63,602 nt of DNA from an uncultured Candidatus Saccharibacteria bacterium (GTDB taxonomy: Bacteria > Patescibacteriota > Doudnabacteria > UBA920), in assembly GCA_964617815.1 (NCBI GenBank), contig CAZTXY010000004.1:1-63602 (forward strand). Reading direction: 5' to 3'. Position numbers and translations under genes: made by a program. The first letter of the stretch is position 1, and every line of letters begins with the position of its first letter. Shown here in pieces: positions 3,389 to 63,270 of the stretch. The notes below the pieces were generated by a model. That model was not told the origin of the DNA. It ran no database searches and saw only the letters and a list, made by a program, of their open reading frames with translations.

Positions 3389-3394
3389 ATGCTA

Positions 3395-3466
3395 CTGTCA
3401 TTCTGAGTGAAACGAAGAATCTCTTGGGTTGGCAGTTTAGATCCTTCACTTCGTTCAGGATGACAG
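3395..3466. repeat. CTGTCAT-family element, complete (two inverted arms)
   Basis: ctgtcattctgagtgaaacgaagaatct ... agatccttcacttcgttcaggatgacag. It lies between mraZ and rsmH. Confidence 0.9.
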
Positions 3467-17070: not shown

Positions 17071-17100
17071 GACCCGATTCTCGCAAGCGAGAATCGGGTC
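17071..17100. terminator. 12-bp hairpin at the left edge of GC islet A
   Basis: gacccgattctc-gcaagc-gagaatcgggtc. It sits between convergent genes. Confidence 0.55.
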
Positions 17101-17125
17101 AAGTTTATGAGGACATTTTTCACCC

Positions 17126-17332
17126 TTACTGAACAGGTGCGAACCTTCCGGGATTCAGGATCTCCCAAAGTCCGGCGCGAGTCAGCTCGAGAGGCTGACC
17201 TTGTCCAATCTGGACAAGGCGGGTGGGGCGTTCGTGGGCACGCTTCCAGTTCACTGATTCGAGAAACTCTCCAAAGTTCGCCCTCGTGACTTCAGTGAGA
17301 TCGACAGTTATGATGTCCCTTTCGGAATTCAT
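17126..17332 (-). CDS. GC-rich ORFan, 68 aa
   Basis: AAGGAGG lies 4 nt upstream of the ATG at 17332. A candidate TTGCAA-N17-TAAACT promoter lies upstream. It is the internal start of track ORF 17126..17635. Confidence 0.5.
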   Translation of the reverse strand: MNSERDIITVDLTEVTRANFGEFLESVNWKRAHERPTRLVQIGQGQPLELTRAGLWEILNPGRFAPVQ

Positions 17333-17410
17333 AGGTCCTCCTTCTTGACTATCGACAGGATTTTGCTCAAGTTTAACTGAAAGCCTGACTTTTTGCAAGC
17401 AAAGAGAAAA

Positions 17411-17454
17411 GGCGAGCTGTGTCGGTAGCGGTAAAAACCGAACACTAGCTCGCC
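17411..17454 (-). terminator. Terminator of the 116-aa/54-aa gene pair
   Basis: ggcgagct...agctcgcc long stem followed, on the minus strand, by TTTTCTCTTT. Confidence 0.6.
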
Positions 17455-17477
17455 TTTTGGTCGCCGCCTGAGCTGTC

Positions 17478-17642
17478 TCAGGCGGCCGAAACTGAATCCT
17501 CCGTGTCGTTGTCGATTGCGACTCCGCAAACCGTGCAGCAGCCGCTACCCGAGTTGCAGATGTCGCAGAAGTCTGTGCCACACTCGTCGCAGTGGTACTT
17601 GTCGGCACCAGTGTTGCGGCATGATACGCATTCATCCAGCAT
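17478..17642 (-). CDS. GC-rich Cys-rich ORFan, 54 aa (four CxxC-type pairs)
   Basis: MLDECVSCRNTGADKYHCDECGTDFCDICNSGSGCCTVCG. The ATG is 8 nt after the upstream stop codon. A hairpin overlaps its stop codon. Confidence 0.5.
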   Translation of the reverse strand: MLDECVSCRNTGADKYHCDECGTDFCDICNSGSGCCTVCGVAIDNDTEDSVSAA

Positions 17643-17650
17643 CAGCGATT

Positions 17651-18001
17651 TTATTGCTTTCGCCACATGGCCTCCATGCCCTGCATGAGCAGGGTATTCT
17701 TGACCCACACAACGGTTGTGGGCTTGAGTTTTCCCAAGTCCACGACGTAGGTGCTCGTGGGTCTTTCCAGACGGACGAACGAGTGAGTTGCTGGCTCCTC
17801 GTCGCGTTCCAGCAGGATCTGCTGGACCGTGACTTTCACGGTCCCAAGCAGTTTCCTGAGTTTCCCGCGGTCGATGCTCGAGAGCTCCTCGCTCGAAGCA
17901 TCGAATGTAAGCTTGTCTTTCCCGAATGAGAGCTCAAAGGCTCCGTCTGCGAGCTCGGAGAGCTCCCCTGGGCCGGCGACGCTTCGTGTTTCCATCGCCA
18001 T
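17651..18001 (-). CDS. GC-rich ORFan, 116 aa
   Basis: AAAGGAGA RBS, AT-rich host-like upstream region, GC3-rich codons. Confidence 0.5.
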   Translation of the reverse strand: MAMETRSVAGPGELSELADGAFELSFGKDKLTFDASSEELSSIDRGKLRKLLGTVKVTVQQILLERDEEPATHSFVRLERPTSTYVVDLGKLKPTTVVWVKNTLLMQGMEAMWRKQ

Positions 18002-29936: not shown

Positions 29937-29958
29937 TCGCATAGTGTATTCCGGTCTA

Positions 29959-30037
29959 CTGTCATTCCGAGCTTGTCTAGGAATCTCCGTGCCTATAATT
30001 GAGATCCTTCTCCGCCGTAGGCGGATCAGGATGACAG
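29959..30037. repeat. CTGTCAT-family element, complete
   Basis: ctgtcattccgagcttgtctaggaatctc...gagatccttctccgccgtaggcggatcaggatgacag. The right arm plus gtgctgggg matches 63211-63256. Confidence 0.9.
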
Positions 30038-30104
30038 TGCTGGGGTGTGACGACAGTGTGACTGGAATGGGATTAAAAAATTACCACTCCCCCATCTTAA
30101 AAAT

Positions 30105-33035: not shown

Positions 33036-33064
33036 TTGACAATTAGGTTTTCTAAGCGTATGAT
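33036..33064 (+). promoter_or_regulatory. Promoter TTGACA-N17-TATGAT of the abrB-like/efflux operon
   Basis: Consensus -35 box. The track ORF 'start' at 33036 is in fact this box. Confidence 0.7.
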
Positions 33065-38992: not shown

Positions 38993-39021
38993 TTGACAAG
39001 ACTAGTTATTTATGGTATTCT
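38993..39021 (+). promoter_or_regulatory. Promoter TTGACA-N17-TATTCT of islet C gene
   Basis: Host-like AT-rich promoter and ~110-nt leader precede the GC-rich ORF. Confidence 0.65.
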
Positions 39022-39135
39022 ATGAGATTAAAACTTTTGCAGGAATAATTGTGGTTATTAAGTTGGTTTAGTTGCCACGATCATTCCCGCAATAGTGGGA
39101 AGCAGATTCGAATTTTTTGGTGTGAGAGGTACGAG

Positions 39136-40083
39136 ATGGAGATGATGACGACCAAGCGCCTTGTCATCGTTGGAAAGAATCACAAGCCGCTCCATGGAGC
39201 GGCCCTCAGCGCGCGCGAGCGCAAGATCAAGAGCAAGCTCGAAACTCTCCGAGCTGAGGGTGTGAGCTACACCACCTCGGAAGGCTGGGAGATCGAAAAG
39301 GCAGAGAAGGCGCGCAAGCGTTTGCTCGCGCAGAATCCGCCGTGTGGGAAGTGCCACGAGAATACGCCGCAGGCGGAGCTCGAGGGCAACGAAGGCTGGT
39401 GCTACGATTGTCGGGAAGCCGACAATCAGCGCTTGGCCGAAATCGAGCGTGCTGGCAAACAGCGGCTGGCCGACATCGAGTGGGCGAAGGTCATCGAGGC
39501 GTCGAAGCGGCCCTGCAAGGGCTGCCAGACGCGGATCGAGCCGTTCGCCTACAAGAATGGCAAGGGATTTTGCAATGCGGACTGCAGGTCGCAGTTTCGG
39601 GCAAACAAGCTCGAAGCCGAGCGTCTCGCGGTCATCGAAGCGAGCAAGGAGCCTTGCTCGGAGTGCGAGCAGCGTTTCATCCCCGAGGACCTTAAGTTCG
39701 GCTGGTGCGTGTCCTGCAAGGATGCACTCACTGCCGGACAGTTCGCATCCTGCGAGGGATGTGGAAAGCGTCACGGATACAGCGAGCTCGAGACCATCGA
39801 GATCAGCGGTGTCGAGCGCATGATCTGCATCAACAACGACGACTGTCTCGAGCTGGCATTCAGCCCGAAGCTCGAGCCGGCACATACTGTTGCTGAGACC
39901 GCGACTCCCGCGGTGACCATCGCGAAGAGGAAACTCCACGCGATGATCACGTACGGCGTCAGCGAGGATGGGCGCCCCAACAACCGGCGCAAGCCCAAGG
40001 TGCCGAAGTCGGCGCGCAAGAAGGGCACCAAGCCGCAGGAAAGCGGCAAGAAGGGCAAGGGCAAGGCCGCCTCCGGCGGCTAG
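39136..40083 (+). CDS. GC-rich ORFan: repeated CxxC zinc-ribbon-like modules plus Lys/Arg-rich tail (315 aa)
   Basis: MEMMTTKRL start after GAGAGG. Four CxxC-x(9-25)-C..C modules, two preceded by IEASK(R/E)PC. C-terminal KPKVPKSARKKGTKPQESGKKGKGK tail. One line counted by hand gave 63% GC. Confidence 0.55.
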   Translation: MEMMTTKRLVIVGKNHKPLHGAALSARERKIKSKLETLRAEGVSYTTSEGWEIEKAEKARKRLLAQNPPCGKCHENTPQAELEGNEGWCYDCREADNQRLAEIERAGKQRLADIEWAKVIEASKRPCKGCQTRIEPFAYKNGKGFCNADCRSQFRANKLEAERLAVIEASKEPCSECEQRFIPEDLKFGWCVSCKDALTAGQFASCEGCGKRHGYSELETIEISGVERMICINNDDCLELAFSPKLEPAHTVAETATPAVTIAKRKLHAMITYGVSEDGRPNNRRKPKVPKSARKKGTKPQESGKKGKGKAASGG

Positions 40084-40141
40084 CAAACAAAATTCCCAGG
40101 AGGGAAACGAAAAAGGCGAACGAGCGGTCTGACGTGCTCGT

Positions 40142-40175
40142 ACCCAGTTGTCATTGACGGCTGGGTTTTTCTTTT
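40142..40175 (+). terminator. Terminator of islet C gene
   Basis: acccag...ctgggt stem plus TTTTTCTTTT. Confidence 0.7.
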
Positions 40176-42775: not shown

Positions 42776-43051
42776 GTGGACATTACTTGGATTGTTGGTA
42801 TGCTTGCCGTGGCGGTGACACTGCTTGGGACTGCTGGTGGTTATGCATCCCAAGTCTGGAAGAATTATCGAAACAAGAGTACGGAGGGGCTCTCGTGGTT
42901 TACCTTCGCCTCGCTCTTGCTTTCGCATTCCGTCTGGTTTGCGTACGGTGTTTTAGGAGGAGACTGGTTTCTGATCATCGCCAACATTCCCGGCGTGCTT
43001 TGTATGACCATCATCCAGGTGCAGTGGTGGTGGTACAAGGTCAGAGGGTGA
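42776..43051 (+). CDS. SemiSWEET / PQ-loop family 3-TM transporter
   Basis: 91 aa, GTG start after a second TGCACGGAGGTGCA hairpin-RBS. GYASQVWKNYRNKSTEGLS...W..YG...N motif. Confidence 0.65.
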   Translation: MDITWIVGMLAVAVTLLGTAGGYASQVWKNYRNKSTEGLSWFTFASLLLSHSVWFAYGVLGGDWFLIIANIPGVLCMTIIQVQWWWYKVRG

Positions 43052-43183
43052 TCAAATTTCGTGGCCGGAGTTTCGTGTTCAAAAGAACACAAAACTCCGG
43101 CTTTTCTGTTATTATAAACCCTTGCATTTTTGGACAATTATGCTATCCTAACAAGTCTTCGAAATTTCGGTGGAGAGGTTTTC

Positions 43184-44383
43184 ATGAGAAAAGAACCGGC
43201 TGTGTGCCTCGTGTTCTCGGAAAACCTGCTTCATGCAGATTTTCCAAGGCTAAGTTTGAATCGATGGCTGGATACAGAGTTAGTGCGAGTTCTGCGGGTT
43301 TTGCGTAAAATTCCGTGTTCAGTTTCTGTGGAAGGTTTTGACTCAGAGATATGCCCGGATCTTGCAAGATTCATTGCAGACTCTGGCAAAGCAGAAGTTA
43401 TTAGTCAGGAGTATGCTCACGTGTTCTCTGGCTGGTTGCCTTCTGAAATCGCGCTACATAACCTTTCCCAGTCATCGCATTCCGTTTGTTTTACGGCGGA
43501 GTACAATCCGCCCAAGACCGATGTGCTGGAAGCGTTGGGGGCTAAAAGTGGTGGAGAGCAAAGAGCCTTTTTTGTTCTCGACAATCAAAGCAGGATGTAT
43601 TCCTTGGCGGATTCTCCATCGCTGTCTTTGCCGCTCCGTTACAGTCTGCCAGAGAATGTTAACGCCCTCGAGCACGCAGGTAGCTTGATGCTCCTGATGC
43701 GCTACGAATACTTCCGGCCGGTGTTGAGCGAATGGTTCTCCTACCAGCGCTCTTTTGATCTCCCGGTCGCTTGTGTGATTGGTGAAATGGAAAGACAACT
43801 TCGCAAAGCACGAAACAACAAGGTGCCAGTAGTGTTTATCCCCATTGATATCGAAGCGTGCATGATCGGTTCACACCGTGGTGCAGAGGTCTTCGAAGAG
43901 ATTGTGGAGGCACTTTTGGCTTCTGGGATCCCACTCATTGGACCAACCGAGGCTTTGGGGATCCTTGCTCCGAATGCAGTTTCTGGCCCGCGTCCAGACC
44001 GGTCACTGAAGAAGTGGCTTGGTTACGGACTTCAGCTTCAGTTGCTGGAAGACTTACAGGCTACGACTTTGGTGACAAACTGGCAAAGCTTGAGCAGCTT
44101 TGAGCAAAAACTGTTTCTGCTTGCATGGGGCTCTGATGCCTTTGCAGTGCTTGAGTACCACTCTGGAACGCCGAGGCTTGTGGTACAGACCGAAGCAGAG
44201 CCGCTTCTAATCGGCGGAGCGAGCGAAGACTCGTACGCCATTAGCCGTGCCGCTTTGTACTATCACCAACTCGGGCTTTCCCCAGTTGAGAGCCTGAAAA
44301 ACTATCAAGAGGAACGCGGCACAAGCCGCCTGCTCGAACTCGTCCTCTCGTGGATGACGAGCGAAAGTGACATTGGCCCCTGA
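43184..44383 (+). CDS. Hypothetical 399-aa protein with weak GH57-like motifs
   Basis: GGAGAGG RBS. GWLPSE, PIDIEA...GSH and WGSDAF are reminiscent of GH57 regions III-V. This is motif-level only. Confidence 0.4.
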   Translation: MRKEPAVCLVFSENLLHADFPRLSLNRWLDTELVRVLRVLRKIPCSVSVEGFDSEICPDLARFIADSGKAEVISQEYAHVFSGWLPSEIALHNLSQSSHSVCFTAEYNPPKTDVLEALGAKSGGEQRAFFVLDNQSRMYSLADSPSLSLPLRYSLPENVNALEHAGSLMLLMRYEYFRPVLSEWFSYQRSFDLPVACVIGEMERQLRKARNNKVPVVFIPIDIEACMIGSHRGAEVFEEIVEALLASGIPLIGPTEALGILAPNAVSGPRPDRSLKKWLGYGLQLQLLEDLQATTLVTNWQSLSSFEQKLFLLAWGSDAFAVLEYHSGTPRLVVQTEAEPLLIGGASEDSYAISRAALYYHQLGLSPVESLKNYQEERGTSRLLELVLSWMTSESDIGP

Positions 44384-44412
44384 TTACTTCGGTAGTTGGG
44401 GGCCTTATTGTT
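44375..44412 (+). terminator. Hairpin at the right edge of islet E
   Basis: ggcccc...ggggcc stem overlapping the stop codon, then TTATTGTT. Confidence 0.6.
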
Positions 44413-47070: not shown

Positions 47071-47153
47071 GAGATTCCTCGACAAGCTCGGAATGACAGT
47101 GAAAATAGGCCTAACTTTTAATACTGTCATCCTGAGCGAAGTCGAAGGATCTC
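47071..47153. repeat. CTGTCAT-family arms in tail-to-head arrangement
   Basis: gagattcctcgacaagctcggaatgacag ... ctgtcatcctgagcgaagtcgaaggatctc. Confidence 0.85.
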
Positions 47154-53605: not shown

Positions 53606-53631
53606 ACATGACAGCACAGCCCTCTCTTGCA

Positions 53632-53659
53632 CTGTCATCCTGAGTGAAGCGAAGGATCT
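53632..53659. repeat. CTGTCAT-family arm
   Basis: ctgtcatcctgagtgaagcgaaggatct. Confidence 0.85.
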
Positions 53660-53660
53660 A

Positions 53661-53702
53661 AAAAAAGCCCCGCCCTTTTGTAAAAAAGGCGGGGCTTTTT
53701 TG
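53661..53702 (+). terminator. Terminator after the surface-protein gene
   Basis: gccccgcc/ggcggggc stem flanked by an A-run and a T-run. Confidence 0.8.
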
Positions 53703-55125: not shown

Positions 55126-55153
55126 TGTCATCCTGAACGGAGTGAAGGATCTC
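55126..55153. repeat. CTGTCAT-family arm
   Basis: tgtcatcctgaacggagtgaaggatctc. Confidence 0.85.
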
Positions 55154-55191
55154 AAATACTGACAGCGATTACACACGAGCAAAAAACTATA

Positions 55192-57667: not shown

Positions 57668-59438
57668 TCTTTTTCGGCAAATCCAGTTTAATGTGAAGTT
57701 CTTTTAATTGTTTTTCGTCAACACTACTTGGTGCATCCATCATGACGTCTTCGGCTGAACCATTTTTTGGAAAGGCAATAACTTCGCGGATGTTAGGTTC
57801 GTTTTCCAGAAGCATTAAGAGGCGGTCAATCCCAGGAGCAAAACCACCGTGTGGTGGCGCGCCATACTCAAAAGCGCGGATCATAGCTCCAAATTTTTCA
57901 TCCACAACTTCTTTGCTATAACCAACAATCTCAAAGGCTTTGTAGAGAATTTCTGGGTTGTAGTTTCGAATCGCACCACTAGAAAGTTCTAAGCCGTTGG
58001 CAATAATATCGTACTGGTCAGCCATGATTTCTAGAGGGTCCCCGGTTTCCAAAGCCTTCAGGCCACCTATAGGCATAGAGAATGGGTTGTGCATAAAGTC
58101 AATTTTTTTGGCCTTATCATCGTACTCATACATTGGGAAATCGGTAATCCAAGCCCATGCAACAATATCAGGATCCTTTAGTCCAAAGTCGTCTGCAAGC
58201 TGGTTTCGCAGTTTGCCAAGTACTTTGTTCACAACAGTTCGATCATCTGCGCCAAAGAAAATAACGTCACCTGTTTTAGCGCCAGTTTTTGTTACGATTA
58301 CGCTAATTTCTTGTTCAGATAGGAATTTTAAAATAGGGGACTTCATACCATCGTTGTCCAAAACAATATAAGCTAAACCACCCGCGCCTTCTTTTTTTAC
58401 AAATTCAGTTAAAGTGTCAATTTGGCTACGTGTAAGCTTACTACCATTTTCAAGACACAAAGCTTTCACCACACCCCCACCTTTGATTGCGTTGGCAAAC
58501 ACACTAAATTCGGTATTGGCTAAATCCGTTGTTAAGTCTACTAACTGCATATCAAAACGTAAGTCAGGACGGTCATTGCCATATTTTTCCATGGCCTCAA
58601 GGTAAGGAAGACGTGGAAAAGGGTTTTGCATCACTTTTTTACCAGCCCAGTCTTCGGTTAGCTTGATAAACAGTGGTTCCATTTCTTGAAAAACAATTTC
58701 ACTTTTGTCGGCAAATGCAATTTCTAAATCGAGTTGATAAAATTCACCAGGGCTTCGGTCGGCTCTTGGGTCTTCATCTCTAAAACATGGAGCAATTTGA
58801 AAATATTTTGGTACGCCAGCAACCATCAACAATTGCTTGAATTGCTGAGGGGCTTGAGGGAGGGCGTAAAATTTTCCCGGGTGCAGGCGAGAGGGAACAA
58901 GAAAATCGCGGGCACCTTCTGGAGAAGAGCTGGTTAAAATGGGTGTGTTAATTTCAATAAAGTCATGTTCGTCCATGTAGTCACGAATAAACTTTATCAT
59001 TTTGTGACGTTGCTTGAGCATCCTTTGCATCTTCTCTCGACGCAAATCTAAAAAGCGAAACTTCAAACGAAGCTCTTCGTTGATTGTTTCTTCTTGGTGC
59101 ATAATCTGGAATGGCAGGGGTTTGCTCGCGTTTAAAACTGTAAGTTTTTCAACTACAATTTCTATTGTACCAGTTTCAATGTTTTGGTTTACTAAATCTG
59201 GCGCTCGTTCGGTAACAGTACCAGTAGCTGTAATAACAAATTCGTCTCGAATTTTCTGCGCAACTTCAAAAACATCCTTGTTTTCTGGATGAATGGTAAG
59301 TTGGACAATGCCGGTGTGGTCGCGAAGGTCAATAAAAATAAGTCCGCCGTGGTCGCGAGTAGACGCGCTCCAGCCCGACAGCGTGACTTCTTCTCCAATT
59401 TTTCCTAAAGTTTCAGTAGCGAGTGTTCGAGTTTCCAT
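57660..59438 (-). CDS. aspS: Aspartyl-tRNA synthetase
   Basis: [13 protein letters not shown] (OB), [10 protein letters not shown] (motif 2) and [10 protein letters not shown] (motif 3). The start is moved to METRT, because the track N-terminus enters a repeat. Confidence 0.9.
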
Positions 59439-59473
59439 GATTTCTGTGTTTCTGTCATCCCGCACATCTTGTG

Positions 59474-59535
59474 CTGTCATCCTGAACGCAGTGAAGGATC
59501 TCTGCAGAGATTCCTCGACAAGCTCGGAATGACAG
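59474..59535. repeat. CTGTCAT-family element, complete
   Basis: ctgtcatcctgaacgcagtgaaggatctc tgca gagattcctcgacaagctcggaatgacag. Confidence 0.9.
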
Positions 59536-59610
59536 TGAGAAGTAAGGACGAGAGTAAAAGATACGTTAAATACTGTAAAATTATAGCAAAATAAGCCAAT
59601 TTAGACAAAT

Positions 59611-59654
59611 GAAAAAGGGATCGTGAGCATACAGCGGTATGACACTAATCCCTT
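59611..59654 (-). terminator. Terminator at the left end of island F unit 3
   Basis: aagggat...atccctt stem with an inner catac/gtatg stem, followed on the minus strand by TTTTT. Confidence 0.6.
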
Positions 59655-60979
59655 TATCGGTTTGGCCCGTTTTGATATAGGCCTTAACAATTGTCCTCTA
59701 TTTGGTTGTTGTCGGCGGGCTGTGCCCGCCGACTGCCCAATCGTGGGCTGCTGACCATCGATCGACCGCCACAGATTGCTCCGTGGACATGTCTGCGAAG
59801 GTCTCGTTCACCTTCTGTATGCGTGGATTCGGGCCACACGCCCATCCCGGCTATTCATTTGTCCCGCGTGCCCTGGCACTCATGGCCAGGGGCTTTCAAG
59901 ACGTACCGGTTTAGGTCCGGCAACCATCGTGTCAGTCAGTCGAAGGTTCTTGGCAAATGGCCTACCGGCTTAGAGGGCCGGAGCTAAATGCCGTGACGAT
60001 TTTAACATGTCGACCTCCTGCCATCTCTGGTTGGAGTTTGCCCGAGGCGACGGAGCGGGGAACATAGCCCCACCCCGCGCCTGAGGCATGCCCGTTTCCG
60101 GGCCAATGGTGGCCTTCGTCGGATCCAATGGGCCACCGGTCGCGCGTCGGATAACTACAAGGGAGCCGACGCACTCCTCACGCCCTGCCGCCTTTACTAC
60201 TCGCCGGGCGACAGTCATTCCGGCCACAGCCTGCCAATTGCAAACTCCCCTCGAGAATGCTTTTGGCAGACTGCAACGCGCCGGATTCGCAAAAAAAGTA
60301 CTACTTACTAACACTAACCTTGATAACGCTCGTTATCACCACGAGCGGGATGGCGATTATCCGTTCGCTTCGGGTTCTTTCGGCCGTCTGCCCAATGTGT
60401 GGGCTTGGCGAGGCTAGAAATCGAGCTCACTTCTGTCGGTCTGTGACCTGTCGAGTGATGCTAGATCTAGCGGTTTCGCCTTTTCCTTTGCGGCCTAGAG
60501 GTTTGTGGCTTTCGCCTTCGTCGTTGTGCCGCCAGAGACTGAAATCAATGGCGGATGAGCAGAGGCATCTGCCTCATTTCTACCTCCATTTCCGTCAGTA
60601 GGGGGGACCGACACACCAACCCTCCTTGAGGGGTTGTTTGTTGGTGTGCTCCCGAGTGGGCAAGCGCACTGGTAATGGTTGCTCCGTTCTCTGGAGACAT
60701 TGACCAGTGCAGGCGGTAGCCGCCCCAGCATTGCTAGGGTGGCGTTCCCGAAACGGGATTCGCCATGATATCACCTCGCCCGTATCGCTGGGCCAGCGCG
60801 GTGAGCCGTCATCGATCGCTCGAAGTGGATGGGGATGTTGTCATCCCGCCGGCGCGACAGTCTGTCGCGTCGAATCCGTCTTCTTAGCGGTGCGAGAACG
60901 CGCTCGCCAGAGAGGCAATTCATGCACTCAGCAACGGCTGAGCGCTCTTCGTCGCGGTCGCCGACCCGATGCCGTGGGT

Positions 60980-61084
60980 CTAGCGGCCGACGCGCATGCC
61001 GACGCAGCTGCCGTCGTCGATCGTGACGAGGCGATTTTCTTTCAACATGTTGAGGGGCGTTGCCGCCCGGTACTGGTTCTTCAT
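60980..61084 (-). CDS. Mini-ORF, 34 aa, first cistron of unit 3
   Basis: GGAGG-caac-ATG. Peptide MKNQYRAATPLNMLKENRLVTIDDGSCVGMRVGR. A perfect 16-nt palindrome (cctcgcctaggcgagg) lies just upstream. Confidence 0.25.
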   Translation of the reverse strand: MKNQYRAATPLNMLKENRLVTIDDGSCVGMRVGR

Positions 61085-61323
61085 GTTGCCTCCGCATCCT
61101 CGCCTAGGCGAGGAAATCGAGGTTCGCGTCAGGACTTTGCCTGACCGCGAAACACACTGAGAAAAAAGAACGAACTTGCTATCGGTGTTGTCGCACTACG
61201 AATCAAAAAGGCAAAACCTCTTTAATCGTCGTAGTATACGAGGCAACAAAAAAGTAATTAGTGAAAGTAGCTTTCTTGAAACTAATTATTTTTTTACTGC
61301 CCCTATACAAAACATAATTTCAT

Positions 61324-61352
61324 ATATTAGCAAATATTATAGCTTTTGTCAA
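61324..61352 (-). promoter_or_regulatory. Promoter TTGACA-N17-TAATAT (unit 3)
   Basis: -35 at 61347-61352 and -10 at 61324-61329, read on the minus strand. It lies in the AT-rich spacer inside the island. Confidence 0.65.
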
Positions 61353-61399
61353 GTACCATTCTAAAATGCTGAAAATGCTTATTTATAAGGTAAAAGGAA

Positions 61400-61421
61400 G
61401 GCCGACACAGTTGCGTCGGCC
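61400..61421 (-). terminator. Terminator of unit 2
   Basis: ggccgac-acagttgc-gtcggcc stem, followed on the minus strand by TTCCTTTTA. Confidence 0.6.
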
Positions 61422-61715
61422 TCTGAAACAGGGTCCACCGAATCGGTGCGAAGCTCATCGAACGAACGTGCTAACGAACGGCCGTCGATGGTTTGATGTT
61501 GGTGGAGCCCAAAGTGATAATCCCTCCGAGGAATTGTGTGGTTCCGGGTTACGGAACCTGAGTGGTGAAGTGGCACAGGGCTTGAGCTAAGAGAGTTAGC
61601 CCTAGGCGCCTATAGTGGCCCAGATGCGGGAGTCCGCAGATCCAGGCCCGTGGTTCGCCGCGTCGCAAATCCGGGGCAACTCAAGTTCCGAAAATGCAAC
61701 CGACGAATGTCGAGA
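61422..61715 (-). ncRNA. Candidate structured 3' region of unit 2
   Basis: ~290 nt of GC-rich sequence between the 68-aa ORF stop and the terminator. Hairpins include agggct...agccct and ggttccg-taac-ccggaacc. No plausible ORF. Confidence 0.3.
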
Positions 61716-61922
61716 TTACAGCAGCCGAAGCGGCCGCTTGTCGACGCTATCGCTCCCAAGAACATCTTGGATGAAGCTCCAGCGCCCCTCACGTCGGCCC
61801 CCGAACTTGGGTGGAACTCGATTCACACCTTTTTCGGTGGTTCCAGGCCTGTCTTGGCCTGGATGAGTGTCGTCCGATGCCGGGACTTCAGTGTCCGGCG
61901 CAGTTGCAGTCGCATTGCTCAT
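61716..61922 (-). CDS. ORFan, 68 aa, disordered-looking (unit 2)
   Basis: TTGACA-N17-TAGTAT promoter, with AAGGAG 7 nt before the ATG. Peptide MSNATATAPDTEVPASDDTHPGQDRPG...RWSFIQDVLG. Confidence 0.4.
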   Translation of the reverse strand: MSNATATAPDTEVPASDDTHPGQDRPGTTEKGVNRVPPKFGGRREGRWSFIQDVLGSDSVDKRPLRLL

Positions 61923-61948
61923 CTGCGTTCTCCTTTGTGACTTTCAAC

Positions 61949-61977
61949 ATACTACAGCTTTTGTTATGTTTTGTCAA
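61949..61977 (-). promoter_or_regulatory. Promoter TTGACA-N17-TAGTAT (unit 2)
   Basis: -35 at 61972-61977 and -10 at 61949-61954, read on the minus strand. Confidence 0.65.
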
Positions 61978-61986
61978 CGTAACGGG

Positions 61987-62023
61987 AGACCCCCAACGGA
62001 GGGGAATCTTCCGTTGGGGGTCT
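61987..62023. other. 13-bp perfect hairpin between unit 1 terminator and unit 2 promoter
   Basis: agacccccaacgg-aggggaatctt-ccgttgggggtct. Confidence 0.7.
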
Positions 62024-62033
62024 TGGGAATGCG

Positions 62034-62087
62034 AGAAAAAAAGCAGCGCTGAGTCACTCACCGGTAAAGGTGACGTGACTCAGCGCT
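62034..62087 (-). terminator. Strong terminator of unit 1 (13 plus 5 bp stem, T-run)
   Basis: agcgctgagtcac(tcacc...ggtga)gtgactcagcgct, preceded on the plus strand by an A-run. Confidence 0.85.
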
Positions 62088-62380
62088 TAAATGCAGGGCA
62101 GTTTAGAGTTGGGCGACTCAGGTTAGCCCTGGTTGGCGTTTAGGAGGCCCAAACGCCAAACAAAATTCCTCCAGTCATGAAATGTTAAACCCTTCGACCG
62201 TGCCACCGTACGCATGATCGAGGCCTTCGCGGGGTTCACCGCAAGCCCATCCTGGGCTCGCAGAGTTGCTTTCTTGGTTTTGGATATTTGTTGGTGTTAA
62301 TATCCTGCCTTCAGGCGGATCTTCTTTAACCATCTTAGTTGCAGTATCTGGCAATGTTTTTCTCCTTCTTGTATTCAAGT
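62088..62380 (-). ncRNA. Candidate ~300-nt transcript (unit 1), coding status unclear
   Basis: It lies between the promoter at 62387-62415 and the terminator. Internal 9-bp hairpin ttggcgttt/aaacgccaa (62132-62158). The only ORF (track 62175..62378) lacks an RBS and looks non-protein-like. Confidence 0.3.
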
Positions 62381-62386
62381 CGAGTC

Positions 62387-62415
62387 ATGGTAAGGTTTTT
62401 TTCGACTTTTGTCAA
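62387..62415 (-). promoter_or_regulatory. Promoter TTGACA-N17-TACCAT (unit 1)
   Basis: -35 at 62410-62415 and a weaker -10 at 62387-62392, read on the minus strand. Confidence 0.45.
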
Positions 62416-62457
62416 GACTTTGCAGTGCTTAGCCAAGAAGTGGGGTATAATAAACTT

Positions 62458-62560
62458 ATGCTTAAAAAAATTGTGCTAGACCTTGAAACACATCCATCCT
62501 ACGCTAAAGCTTCGGAGGATTTATTTGAAAAGTTGATTATCAGTTGCAATGGAGGCGCTC
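62458..62560 (+). pseudogene. Duplicated 5' end (11 codons) of the downstream exonuclease gene followed by a degenerate repeat arm
   Basis: 62458-62490 and 62561-62593 both encode MLKKIVLDLET using different synonymous codons. 62489-62523 resembles a CTGTCAT arm. Confidence 0.5.
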
Positions 62561-63139
62561 ATGCTTAAAAAGATAGTTTTAGATTTAGAAACTCAAAATT
62601 TATTTCAAGATGTTGGGGGGCGGGGAAAAAATCATCTATTAAAAATTTCCGTTTGTGGAATTTATGAATATAGTAAAAATGAATATTCGATTTACGAAGA
62701 ATTAGAATTGCCGAAGTTGGCGTCAATTTTGCAGTCAGCTGATCAGATTATTGGTTTTAATATTAAAAGTTTTGACTTTGAAGTCCTACAGCCGTACTTA
62801 GACTTTGATATTTTTGAGCTTCCTTACTACGATATATTGGAAGAGATCAACAGAAGCCTTGGACGGCGCATTAGTTTGGAAACCGTGGCACAAGGAACGC
62901 TTGGAAGTGGGAAGTCTGGAAGTGGCAAAGAAGCGGTGTTATATTATCGCAGTGGGCGAATGGATTTACTAAAAAAGTATTGTTTGGACGACGTTAAAGT
63001 GACCAAACAAGTTTACGAGTATGCCTTGAAGAATCAAAAATTATTGTATCGTGATTTTTTTAATTTAGCTGAAATCCCAATTGTTTGCCAAGAGCCTGAT
63101 CCTCGAGTGGGTGTGCAACATCAGTCGGTGTTGTTTTAG
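62561..63139 (+). CDS. RNase H-like / DEDD-type 3'-5' exonuclease domain protein
   Basis: VLDLETQN (Exo I-like motif), C-terminal YCLDDV. GGAGG lies 5 nt before the ATG. Confidence 0.55.
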   Translation: MLKKIVLDLETQNLFQDVGGRGKNHLLKISVCGIYEYSKNEYSIYEELELPKLASILQSADQIIGFNIKSFDFEVLQPYLDFDIFELPYYDILEEINRSLGRRISLETVAQGTLGSGKSGSGKEAVLYYRSGRMDLLKKYCLDDVKVTKQVYEYALKNQKLLYRDFFNLAEIPIVCQEPDPRVGVQHQSVLF

Positions 63140-63161
63140 CATTAAGTAGTATGTTCACGTG

Positions 63162-63247
63162 CTGTCATTCCGATCCGCCAGCCGGCGGACGGGGAATCTC
63201 TTGCTCTTTTGGGATCCTTCTCCGCCGGAGGCGGATCAGGATGACAG
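63162..63247. repeat. CTGTCAT-family element, complete ('ccgcc-NGGC-ggcgg' subtype)
   Basis: ctgtcattccgatccgccagccggcggacggggaatctc ... gggatccttctccgccggaggcggatcaggatgacag. Confidence 0.9.
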
Positions 63248-63270
63248 TGCTGGGGAAGAGTCCTTAACTC

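Follow-up and report, generated by a model that had tools for sequence, protein, structure and literature searches.

Dual-function RNAs such as Staphylococcus aureus RNAIII/hld, SgrS/SgrT and SR1/SR1P combine a structured regulatory RNA with a short translated open reading frame (ORF). Short ORFs also make up the leader-peptide attenuators and upstream ORFs of the trpL, pheL, tnaC and ermCL type. Phage morons are autonomous promoter-gene-terminator cassettes of deviant G+C content (GC) that are inserted between conserved genes. GC-rich intergenic regions, in turn, have served as a discovery route for large ornate bacterial non-coding RNAs (PMC8723152, PMC11109978). Here we analyse a 2.8-kb GC-rich island at positions 59611-62415 of contig CAZTXY010000004.1 from an uncultured Candidatus Saccharibacteria bacterium (Doudnabacteria in GTDB); the whole stretch of 63,602 nucleotides (nt), a complete NCBI contig, is called the window throughout. 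The kinds nearest to this island appear to be, by function, the dual-function RNAs (RNAIII) and the large ornate non-coding RNAs and, by architecture, the phage morons.

The island is flanked by aspS, encoding an AspRS with tRNA-synt_2, GAD and OB domains, and by an exonuclease-like gene of the RNase_H_2 superfamily, with lgt as a further gene of the neighbourhood. Its GC is 0.58-0.59 over 59660-62380 and 0.49 in the part that holds the first unit, compared to 0.41 for the whole 63.6-kb window. All three units (U1, U2 and U3) lie on the minus strand, directly upstream of aspS and co-directional with it. We lean with moderate confidence towards the view that the three represent an undescribed family of structured RNAs, each autonomous and in part translated; an ancestor of a small Doudnabacteria-like clade would have acquired the island, which would be restricted to that clade. 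Hereby, each of the three cassettes would use its own promoter and terminator to yield a structured and partly translated RNA. U1 would be a small RNA of ~150 nt, lengthened in the window by an ORF-carrying insert of 193 nt. The ~550-nt RNA of U2 would encode a disordered protein of 54-68 amino acids (aa) with an RPLRLL tail, followed by a conserved multi-hairpin domain of ~300 nt. U3 would be an RNA of ~1.7 kb whose structured leader covaries and which carries three short ORFs (30-34, ~23 and 12 codons) led by Shine-Dalgarno (SD) motifs, the mini-ORFs holding their reading frame while the peptide cores vary freely; ~1.2 kb of it would be strongly conserved non-coding sequence, probably folding into many hairpins.

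Three units at one site in four lineages

Homologous copies of the island were found with three different queries. The 68-aa ORF of U2 led to a single ortholog, P0004, with 88% identity, at locus L029 (NCBI contig JBGAWY010000066.1), which carries the same lgt and exonuclease genes and then an ~82%-identical island copy running off the contig end. The longest island ORF in any frame, a 145-aa ORF on the plus strand (60707-61144) that is the shadow of a minus-strand frame, led to L030, a Logan contig from run SRR29236923 that is 80% identical over window positions 60132-61247. A 24-nt block of U3 that is invariant in the window, L029 and L030 retrieved three ENA/JGI metagenome contigs (L031-L033); these are 99-99.8% identical to one another, represent a single lineage, here called OF, and hold the exonuclease gene and an island copy reaching to window position 59725. 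In total, the island is present in four lineages (window, L029, L030 and OF), in every one at the same site.

Independent assemblies and lineages likewise show both junctions with the flanking genes. On the aspS side, the junction is crossed by a Logan contig of run SRR8893623 that corresponds to window positions 59505-61492 at 100% identity, and a second Logan contig (run SRR8893625) covers positions 59892-61144; the junction between U1 and the exonuclease gene is present in L029 and in the three ENA metagenome contigs. An earlier note on this DNA, made from the letters alone, had named an assembly chimera as one way in which the island could be spurious. Since four independent lineages carry the island next to the same exonuclease gene, a chimera is not supported.

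To place the locus among its relatives, we compared 26 aspS loci of GTDB representative genomes, which place the organism among Doudnabacteria-like bacteria of the Candidate Phyla Radiation (CPR), with a best AspRS identity of 80%. At 13 of the 26 loci the exonuclease gene lies divergently upstream of aspS, and none of these 13 more distant relatives carries the island. In relatives the two genes are separated by as little as 84 nt (L007) and as much as 2.76 kb (L025), and the contents of the spacers are mutually unrelated (L001-L012, L024, L025). Searches with blastn, nhmmer and profile nhmmer detected no diverged island copy in the spacers of the 26 loci. As the spacers are variable and unrelated to the island, it sits in a variable intergenic hotspot and is lineage-specific. 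The 2.76-kb spacer of L025 itself contains a moderately GC-rich stretch with ORFs of 120-155 aa.

Further searches for the island gave no match: U2 peptide patterns and the three invariant DNA blocks of the island in GTDB representatives, the same three blocks in IMG/VR, blastn in distant mode against phage and plasmid collections, and U2 peptide patterns in JGI metagenomes. Exact-protein look-ups returned no record of the exonuclease protein or of P0003. A composite minus-strand query of all three frames (stops as X) found no match in a collection of 5.8 billion proteins; it also missed the 68-aa ORF of the window itself and was discarded as unreliable. As regards contig L030, both of its ends (1-21 and 1161-1181) are Illumina adapter, with extra G residues beside one of them; if its library was stranded RNA-seq, the orientation would put read 2 sense to the predicted transcript.

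The features of the island, in the order of predicted transcription, are as follows.

62387-62415, minus strand: U1 promoter, TTGACA-17-TACCAT, kept in L029 and OF (TTGACG in OF)
62181-62373, minus strand: window-specific U1 insert of 193 nt, absent from L029 and all OF contigs
62088-62180, minus strand: conserved small-RNA body of U1, with a 12-bp hairpin (62162-62130, loop CCUCC) and a second stem-loop
62034-62087, minus strand: U1 intrinsic terminator, 13-bp stem (62087-62045) plus U7, conserved
61987-62023, minus strand: perfect 14-bp hairpin with no U-run, between the U1 terminator and the U2 -35 box
61949-61977, minus strand: U2 promoter, TTGACA-17-TAGTAT, kept in homologs
61716-61922, minus strand: U2 small-protein ORF, 68 aa, AAGGAG-N7-ATG, C-terminal RPLRLL followed by stop
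61424-61715, minus strand: multi-hairpin 3' domain of U2, ~91% identical to L029 and conserved in OF too
61398-61423, minus strand: U2 intrinsic terminator, invariant in all lineages
61324-61352, minus strand: U3 promoter, TTGACA-17-TAATAT with TG extension, kept in homologs
61085-61317, minus strand: structured 5' leader of U3, with an AT-rich hairpin (61301-61242), a long hairpin (~61240-61195) and further stems
60980-61084, minus strand: mini-ORF a, GGAGG-N4-ATG, 34 codons, TAG stop
60680-60979, minus strand: U3 conserved block 1, invariant hairpins, 83-95% identical across lineages, containing 1-nt indels
60545-60616, minus strand: mini-ORF b, 23 codons from GTG at 60616 (ATG in other lineages)
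60140-60544, minus strand: conserved blocks 2 and 3 of U3, with 84-90% identity to L030 and OF except in an AT-rich variable patch (~60340-60290)
59970-60008, minus strand: mini-ORF c, AGGAGG-N5-ATG, 12 codons, MLKSSRHLAPAL
59736-59905, minus strand: U3 3' block, 170 nt, 100% identical between window and OF
59711-59733, minus strand: 10-bp G+C hairpin (GUCGGCGGGC ACA GCCCGCCGAC), at which the OF contigs break
59611-59654, minus strand: U3 terminator-like hairpin with U-run; no homolog spans this region, and the aspS promoter follows

A scan of both strands of the window for the strict motif TTGACA-N17-TAnnnT returned seven occurrences compared to 1.1 expected; three of the seven are the island promoters, and a fourth, at 38993, drives another GC-rich cassette. 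The remaining three are located on the plus strand at 33036, 48176 and 49908. A weaker promoter (59608-59580, TTGTCT-17-TATAAT) lies in front of aspS, downstream of the U3 terminator, and no convergent plus-strand promoter in the island exceeds 9 of 12 consensus matches. The terminator of U1 differs in L029 by two compensatory and three one-sided pair-preserving changes. The hairpin at 61987-62023 is retained in the OF lineage, and a different hairpin occupies the same place in L029.

The earlier note described three minus-strand units in tandem, with a promoter and a terminator for each; this organisation is real and conserved in the four lineages. Hereby, the three TTGACA promoters with 17-nt spacers were found at their reported sites and are preserved in the homologous copies, and all three hairpin terminators are present, the first two being conserved in homologs. 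The additional perfect hairpin between U1 and U2 is present as well, but with a stem of 14 rather than 13 bp. Composition counts and the ORF listing bear out the switch to GC-rich sequence and the lack of any ORF beyond about 145 codons.

Coding constraint and conserved non-coding blocks

The neutral background of the comparison is provided by the exonuclease gene, in which the identity of the window at fourfold-degenerate sites is 69.5% to L029 and 41.5% to OF. Within the island, 60-nt windows are 0.84-1.00 identical in long blocks, which are interleaved with patches of 0.50-0.65; in U3 the high-identity blocks are 60979-60680, 60555-60380, ~60250, 60075-59960 and 59905-59736. Such a fine-grained mosaic of conserved and near-neutral sequence points to purifying selection at the nucleotide level. 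Outside the small ORFs, 44 unique indels separate the U3 copies of the four lineages, with 35 of them being 1-2 nt long and only 3 a multiple of 3. Inside mini-ORFs a and b, on the other hand, all 5 of 5 indels are multiples of 3 (Fisher P=2.9e-5 against the 3/44 outside). None of the conserved blocks shows 3-periodic substitution (P=0.39 for the U3 body as a whole and P=0.93 for block 1), and a six-frame Pfam search of the island revealed neither a domain nor a remnant. The tolerance of 1-2-nt indels together with the lack of 3-periodicity shows that the bulk of the island is non-coding on either strand. Codon-like conservation of a frameshifted gene, which the earlier note had regarded as the signature of a pseudogene, was thus looked for and not found; indels and phase test argue for non-coding blocks. 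The earlier note had further described the ORFs of the region as nonsense. This holds for the long ORFs, which are flat in their G+C content at third codon positions (GC3), but several short SD-led ORFs under coding constraint had been overlooked.

Mini-ORFs a to c keep SD motif, start, stop and frame across three to four lineages. Their substitutions fall equally on all three codon positions, suggesting that the frames, not the sequences, are preserved. Mini-ORF a encodes 30-34 aa in the four lineages, retaining an MKN(R/Q)(H/Y) start, a GR end and the TAG stop around a variable core rich in Asp, Gly, Ser and Cys. In every lineage it shows a GC3 of 0.85-0.94 (0.89 in the window) and a host-referenced codon adaptation index (CAI) of 0.41-0.48, compared to 0.65-0.76 for host genes. 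As this combination persists despite near-saturated sequence change, the host-rare codons appear to be maintained. A GC3 coding signature is seen for mini-ORF a only (control: 0.73-0.81 in the genes of other GC-rich islands of the contig). Mini-ORF b encodes 22-23 aa ending in PLLIR(H/T)-stop (PLLIRH in the window), its frame being held in four lineages despite two 3-nt indels; an alternative internal start (GGAGG-N5-ATG at 60577) would give 10 codons. In mini-ORF c, the SD motif and frame are kept in L031 and L033, while 4 of the 12 residues differ between these two. An invariant SD-led ORF of 10 codons (MANPVSGTPP) starts at 60766, inside block 1. Enrichment of the SD motif GGAGG is not significant (6 versus 3.5 expected).

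For the U2 protein, constraint resides in its C-terminus. The ORF encodes 68 aa in the window, 66 aa in L029 (an in-frame 6-nt indel) and 54 aa in OF. In the OF lineage, the 5' half of U2 has been swapped for unrelated, unalignable sequence, which still contains a GGAG-led ORF ending in RPLRLL-stop. The motif is encoded by CGG CCG CTT CGG CTG CTG TAA in the window and by AGG CCT CTC AGA CTG TTG TAG in OF; preservation through synonymous codons argues for selection at the amino-acid level. Apart from this motif the protein is disordered, and an exhaustive HMMER search of 1.84 billion representatives for its family returned nothing beyond the known ortholog and a repeat protein that is a spurious match. 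In OF, the 5' untranslated region of U2 (L031 reverse strand ~2130-2250) contains a leader of ~110 nt that is built from repeated (T)TTCCGGTT-like motifs and precedes the 54-aa ORF.

The first unit described in the earlier note is real, but most of its length is the window-only insert; in the other lineages U1 is predicted to be a small RNA of ~150 nt, and its body is 94-97% identical across all lineages. The insert contributes an AAGGAG motif (62367-62362) and a TTG start (62354) to an ORF of 59 codons whose stop (62177-62175) lies just outside it. The GC3 of this ORF is 0.42; no relatives of the insert were found, and there is no comparative sign that the ORF is translated. A pairing between U1 (62171-62160) and U2 (61539-61528) was considered and rejected, as it is not kept in L029.

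Some of the identity may have another source. L031 and L033, 99% identical overall, diverge in two patches (window ~60225-60205 and 60040-59925; columns ~1268-1290 and 1478-1600 of alignment A9), one of which covers mini-ORF c, and in these patches L031 resembles the window. This indicates allelic recombination or localised hypervariability within one population. Likewise, the identity of the 170-nt 3' block of U3 could reflect either extreme constraint or recent allelic exchange. Taken together, the patches and this block suggest some allelic exchange, which may inflate identity locally.

Within the limits of aligned sequence, the comparison of lineages demonstrates that the blocks are non-coding, that the small ORFs are under coding constraint and that promoters and terminators are conserved. 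The island can be regarded as real and unusual, a rare and apparently vertically retained locus of three units with strong predicted promoters.

Conserved RNA structure

Folding of single sequences gave z scores of -6.0 for U1 and -5.5 for U2, with more negative values on the minus strand in a sliding scan, and ordinary host genes as a control gave z values around 0. Single-sequence folding is weak evidence here because the GC-rich protein-coding islands of the same contig fold nearly as well. We therefore turn to substitutions that preserve pairing. In a pairwise test, the minimum free energy (MFE) structure of the window alone was compared with L029, whose substitutions were shuffled among same-base columns. 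The U3 leader showed 10 compensatory pairs versus 3.3 expected (P=0.0005) and U2 showed 3 versus 0.46 (P=0.008). An excess was also seen in the 3' part of U1, and the plus strand generally showed none. In addition, an AlifoldZ-type test was carried out, in which the consensus MFE is compared with column-shuffled alignments, with the following z scores.

U3 leader: minus strand -6.7 to -9.4, plus strand -1.4 to -4.3
U2 3' domain: minus strand about -6, plus strand -0.9 to -1.8
U1: minus strand about -8, plus strand about -7
U3 body windows: minus strand -0.3 to -5.3, plus strand -0.8 to -4.8

Blocks 2 and 3 of U3 (60140-60544) reach z values of -3.8 to -5.3 in most windows. Counts of covarying pairs were controlled by shuffles (n=500) and by slid partners. 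For the U3 leader, the score of 0.261 compares with a shuffled mean of 0.178, none of 500 shuffles reaching the observed value, and with at most 0.09 for slid partners. The 3' domain of U2, with five compensatory pairs, scores 0.128 (shuffled mean 0.093, 4/500 reaching the observed value, slid partners at most 0.069). In line with this, the hairpin directly 5' of the SD motif of mini-ORF a has three different sequences in three lineages, all of which pair. Taken with the AlifoldZ scores, the covariation favours the minus strand for the U3 leader, the 3' domain of U2 and U1.

These data establish conserved predicted structure for the leader of U3, the 3' domain of U2 and the terminator of U1, whereas the long U3 body is plausible as a folded RNA. 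Covariation, named by the earlier note as support for a structured RNA, is thus present in the leader and the U2 domain, but for the 1.3-kb U3 body four lineages do not establish it. An internal duplication of domains in U3 is limited to one 35-nt module of marginal significance, repeated on the minus strand at 60405-60371 and 59749-59716 with 77% identity and consisting of AGCCCAC-loop-UUGGGCAG followed by a G+C hairpin.

From the evidence above we infer that the units are probably transcribed as predicted, that the conserved blocks may act as RNA rather than DNA, as a scaffold or regulator in the dual-function manner of RNAIII, and that translation of the rare-codon mini-ORFs may be coupled to folding or stability of the RNA downstream. 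The earlier note had proposed an undescribed system that is RNA-based or else micropeptide-based. Undescribed it appears to be, but the locus would be both rather than one or the other, because it contains short SD-led ORFs under coding constraint.

Comparable systems, other readings and significance

No named family accommodates the island, as far as its sequence allows a judgement. At the gathering threshold, Rfam cmscan of the whole window reported only 3 tRNAs, all outside the island; a permissive scan of the island gave a best score of 23.6 bits against a threshold of 84 bits, with an unrelated miRNA model, and the copies in L029, L030 and L031 had no Rfam match at E<=1. Matches to GOLLD, ROOL, OLE, HEARO, raiA, RNase P, SRP, 6S, group I/II introns and T-box were lacking in these Rfam scans, and ARAGORN detected neither a tmRNA nor a tRNA over 59400-62600, in agreement with the failure of the earlier note to recognise tmRNA, RNase P, SRP, group I/II introns or any known family. 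The island peptides matched nothing in Pfam, PHROGs, PADLOC or NCBIfam. A literature search returned the general strategy of discovery in GC-rich intergenic regions and the known large RNAs, and nothing like the island in CPR bacteria.

Compared to the dual-function RNAs, the units share independent (here predicted) transcription, structure and a short ORF, with conserved RNA beyond the ORF as the (here presumed) main functional part; a coding-constrained short ORF in a unit with its own promoter is found here in the form of conserved SD, start, stop and frame, the indel test and RPLRLL, transcription being predicted. The CCUCC loop of U1 recalls the C-rich, SD-targeting loops of such RNAs and may or may not act alike. 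On the other hand, there is no kinship by sequence or covariance model, U3 is about 3x as long as RNAIII and has at least three mini-ORFs, and the island combines three tandem units in a CPR host. With OLE, GOLLD, ROOL, HEARO and raiA, the island shares a long, GC-rich, ORF-poor intergenic region in an AT-rich genome, conserved sequence and many hairpins with UUCG- or GNRA-type loops. It differs by the lack of an Rfam match, its occurrence in four lineages only, the embedded mini-ORFs (predicted to be translated) and insufficient covariation in the body. The mini-ORFs resemble leader peptides in being short and SD-led, in conserving frame and position over sequence, in lying within conserved structure and in using host-rare codons, but their unit has no structural gene downstream, and neither a terminator/antiterminator pair nor a regulatory codon run was identified. 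Like phage morons, the units have their own promoter and terminator and deviant GC and are inserted between genes that are adjacent in relatives; unlike them, the island is chromosomal, in a CPR bacterium, and its cargo would be mostly non-coding RNA. A prophage location finds no support either, with no phage genes in the flanks, no PHROGs result and no phage, plasmid or IMG/VR match.

Three further candidates were rejected. A type I toxin-antitoxin system does not fit hydrophilic or disordered peptides that lack a hydrophobic stretch of ~20 residues; there is no convergent promoter above 9/12, and PADLOC found nothing. Mini-ORF a has the conserved N-terminus and variable Ser/Cys/Gly/Asp core of a precursor of ribosomally synthesised and post-translationally modified peptides, but no enzyme gene is present in the island or its flanks. 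As to a diversity-generating retroelement, no repeat links the island to the window, mini-ORF c shows no adenine-specific pattern where L031 and L033 differ, and no reverse-transcriptase domain was found.

Several observations weigh against the island as a set of structured, partly translated RNAs. It is known from only four lineages, with three of the homolog contigs derived from one population, and part of its high identity could be due to recent exchange and not to selection. Purifying selection at the amino-acid level is not seen in the mini-ORFs except at their termini, and the genomic context points to no function. The U3 body has no significant compensatory excess in the pairwise test of window versus L029, and in a non-overlapping scan its fold z score of -2.2 hardly differs from the -1.8 to -2.0 of the GC-rich protein-coding cassettes. 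Block 1 is for the most part made up of invariant helices; its loops vary, and only 3 pairs are compensatory, which is suggestive and underpowered.

We consider a different explanation possible but clearly less probable: the island would be a horizontally acquired cluster of orphan micropeptide or small-protein genes, its GC-rich stretches being untranslated regions and its identity a product of recent gene flow or recombination. Three other GC-rich islands on the same contig (GC 0.52-0.63) indeed contain orphan protein-coding genes.

39050-40170: GC-rich cassette with a 315-aa Cys-rich ORF (39136-40083), served by a TTGACA-17 promoter of its own (38993) and by a terminator (40142)
17100-18000: GC-rich cassette with ORFs of 116 aa and 76 aa at 17.5-18.0 kb
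42800-44400: GC-rich cassette with a 417-aa ORF (43130-44383)

Their ORFs show a GC3 of 0.73-0.81 and a host CAI of 0.44-0.56, so that promoter type and host-atypical codon usage recur there, and their sense strands fold better than shuffled sequences (z about -2). As these islands encode proteins, GC-richness alone is not diagnostic; the GC shift that the earlier note took as a signature of non-coding RNA is real, but protein-coding cassettes share it. Frame constraint on the small ORFs, visible recombination mosaics and weak covariation in the U3 body would also suit a gene cluster. Against it, ~1.5 kb of blocks is conserved beyond the neighbourhood of adjacent essential genes with near-neutral patches only a few nt away, a single recent transfer would not yield such a mosaic in all four lineages, and the leader of U3 and the 3' domain of U2 covary significantly and in a strand-specific manner.

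Less probable still is a mobile element, either a remnant or non-autonomous (a satellite, an integrative cassette or like a phage moron), with RNAs that act on its own behalf, e.g. in maintenance, interference or addiction. Its deviant GC, self-contained units, location in an intergenic hotspot and swapping of modules (the U1 insert, the 5' half of U2) are what such an element would show, whereas the island contains no integrase, transposase, terminal repeat or target duplication that we could find, and phage, plasmid, IMG/VR and PADLOC searches gave no match. Moreover, the island occupies the same chromosomal site in all lineages and its variable patches have diverged to a similar extent as the flanks, which together suggest vertical inheritance.

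Control of aminoacyl-tRNA synthetase genes by leader peptides and T-boxes is established, which favours, along with the co-directional position immediately upstream of aspS and the host-rare codons of mini-ORF a, yet another explanation: U3 or the whole island could be a giant cis-acting leader of aspS in which translation of the mini-ORFs controls read-through of the hairpin at 59654-59611. We regard this as improbable, as aspS has its own promoter downstream of the U3 terminator, relatives manage aspS from spacers down to 84 nt, no T-box or other leader family matched and the mini-ORFs show no enrichment of Asp codons. That the island is a decayed and frameshifted pseudogene whose donor was GC-rich, or else a chimera or contaminant of assembly, is largely refuted and very improbable: this reading could draw on the GC-richness and on the GC3 of ~0.88 of mini-ORF a, with a GC3-rich look continuing past the TAG in the window, but frames past that TAG are not conserved (L029 has a 1-nt insertion), no Pfam remnant or 3-periodicity exists, blocks conserved far above neutral are not decaying, and host synteny resumes on both sides of junctions seen in independent assemblies and lineages.

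Two repeats in the surroundings may be mentioned. A short inverted repeat resembling miniature inverted-repeat transposable elements or repetitive extragenic palindromes (CTGTCATCC...GGAATGACAG type) has at least 6 copies on the contig and occurs in L029 as well (2642-2719); Logan contig L027 ends within one copy. The copies in the window are as follows.

59450-59540: copy of the inverted repeat
63150-63250: copy of the inverted repeat
47071-47153: copy of the inverted repeat
53629-53668: copy of the inverted repeat
55126-55156: copy of the inverted repeat
29957-30045: copy of the inverted repeat
3393-3466: copy of the inverted repeat

Further, 62455-62492 duplicates the start of the exonuclease gene (62558-62595; MLKKIVLDLET...) over 38 nt with 76% identity, 103 nt upstream of the real start. 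This duplicate is also found in L006, L029 and the OF contigs and is therefore older than, and independent of, the island.

In conclusion, the reading of the island as three partly translated structured RNAs remains the one we prefer. The narrow distribution of the island limits its general importance for now. Tentatively, and with distinctly less confidence than in that reading, U3 may constitute an undescribed class of very large (~1.7 kb) structured CPR RNA, longer than OLE, GOLLD and ROOL, whose folding or function is coupled to translation of rare-codon mini-ORFs; with the U1 small RNA and the U2 RPLRLL protein and RNA domain it would then form an RNA-centred module kept at high G+C in an AT-rich, reduced genome. 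An unexplained evolutionary signal is that a fast-evolving mini-ORF retains codons which end in G or C and are rare in the host (GC3 ~0.9), and that the other GC-rich cassettes retain such codons too. Should the U3 body fold as a single RNA, it would rank with the largest structured RNAs of bacteria outside the ribosome, and U3 would provide a natural RNA in which translated mini-ORFs are interleaved with conserved structure. CPR (Patescibacteria) genomes are tiny and have little spare DNA. That such a genome keeps ~1.5 kb of non-coding sequence which evolves more slowly than the neighbouring genes implies an important, undescribed function at the RNA level.

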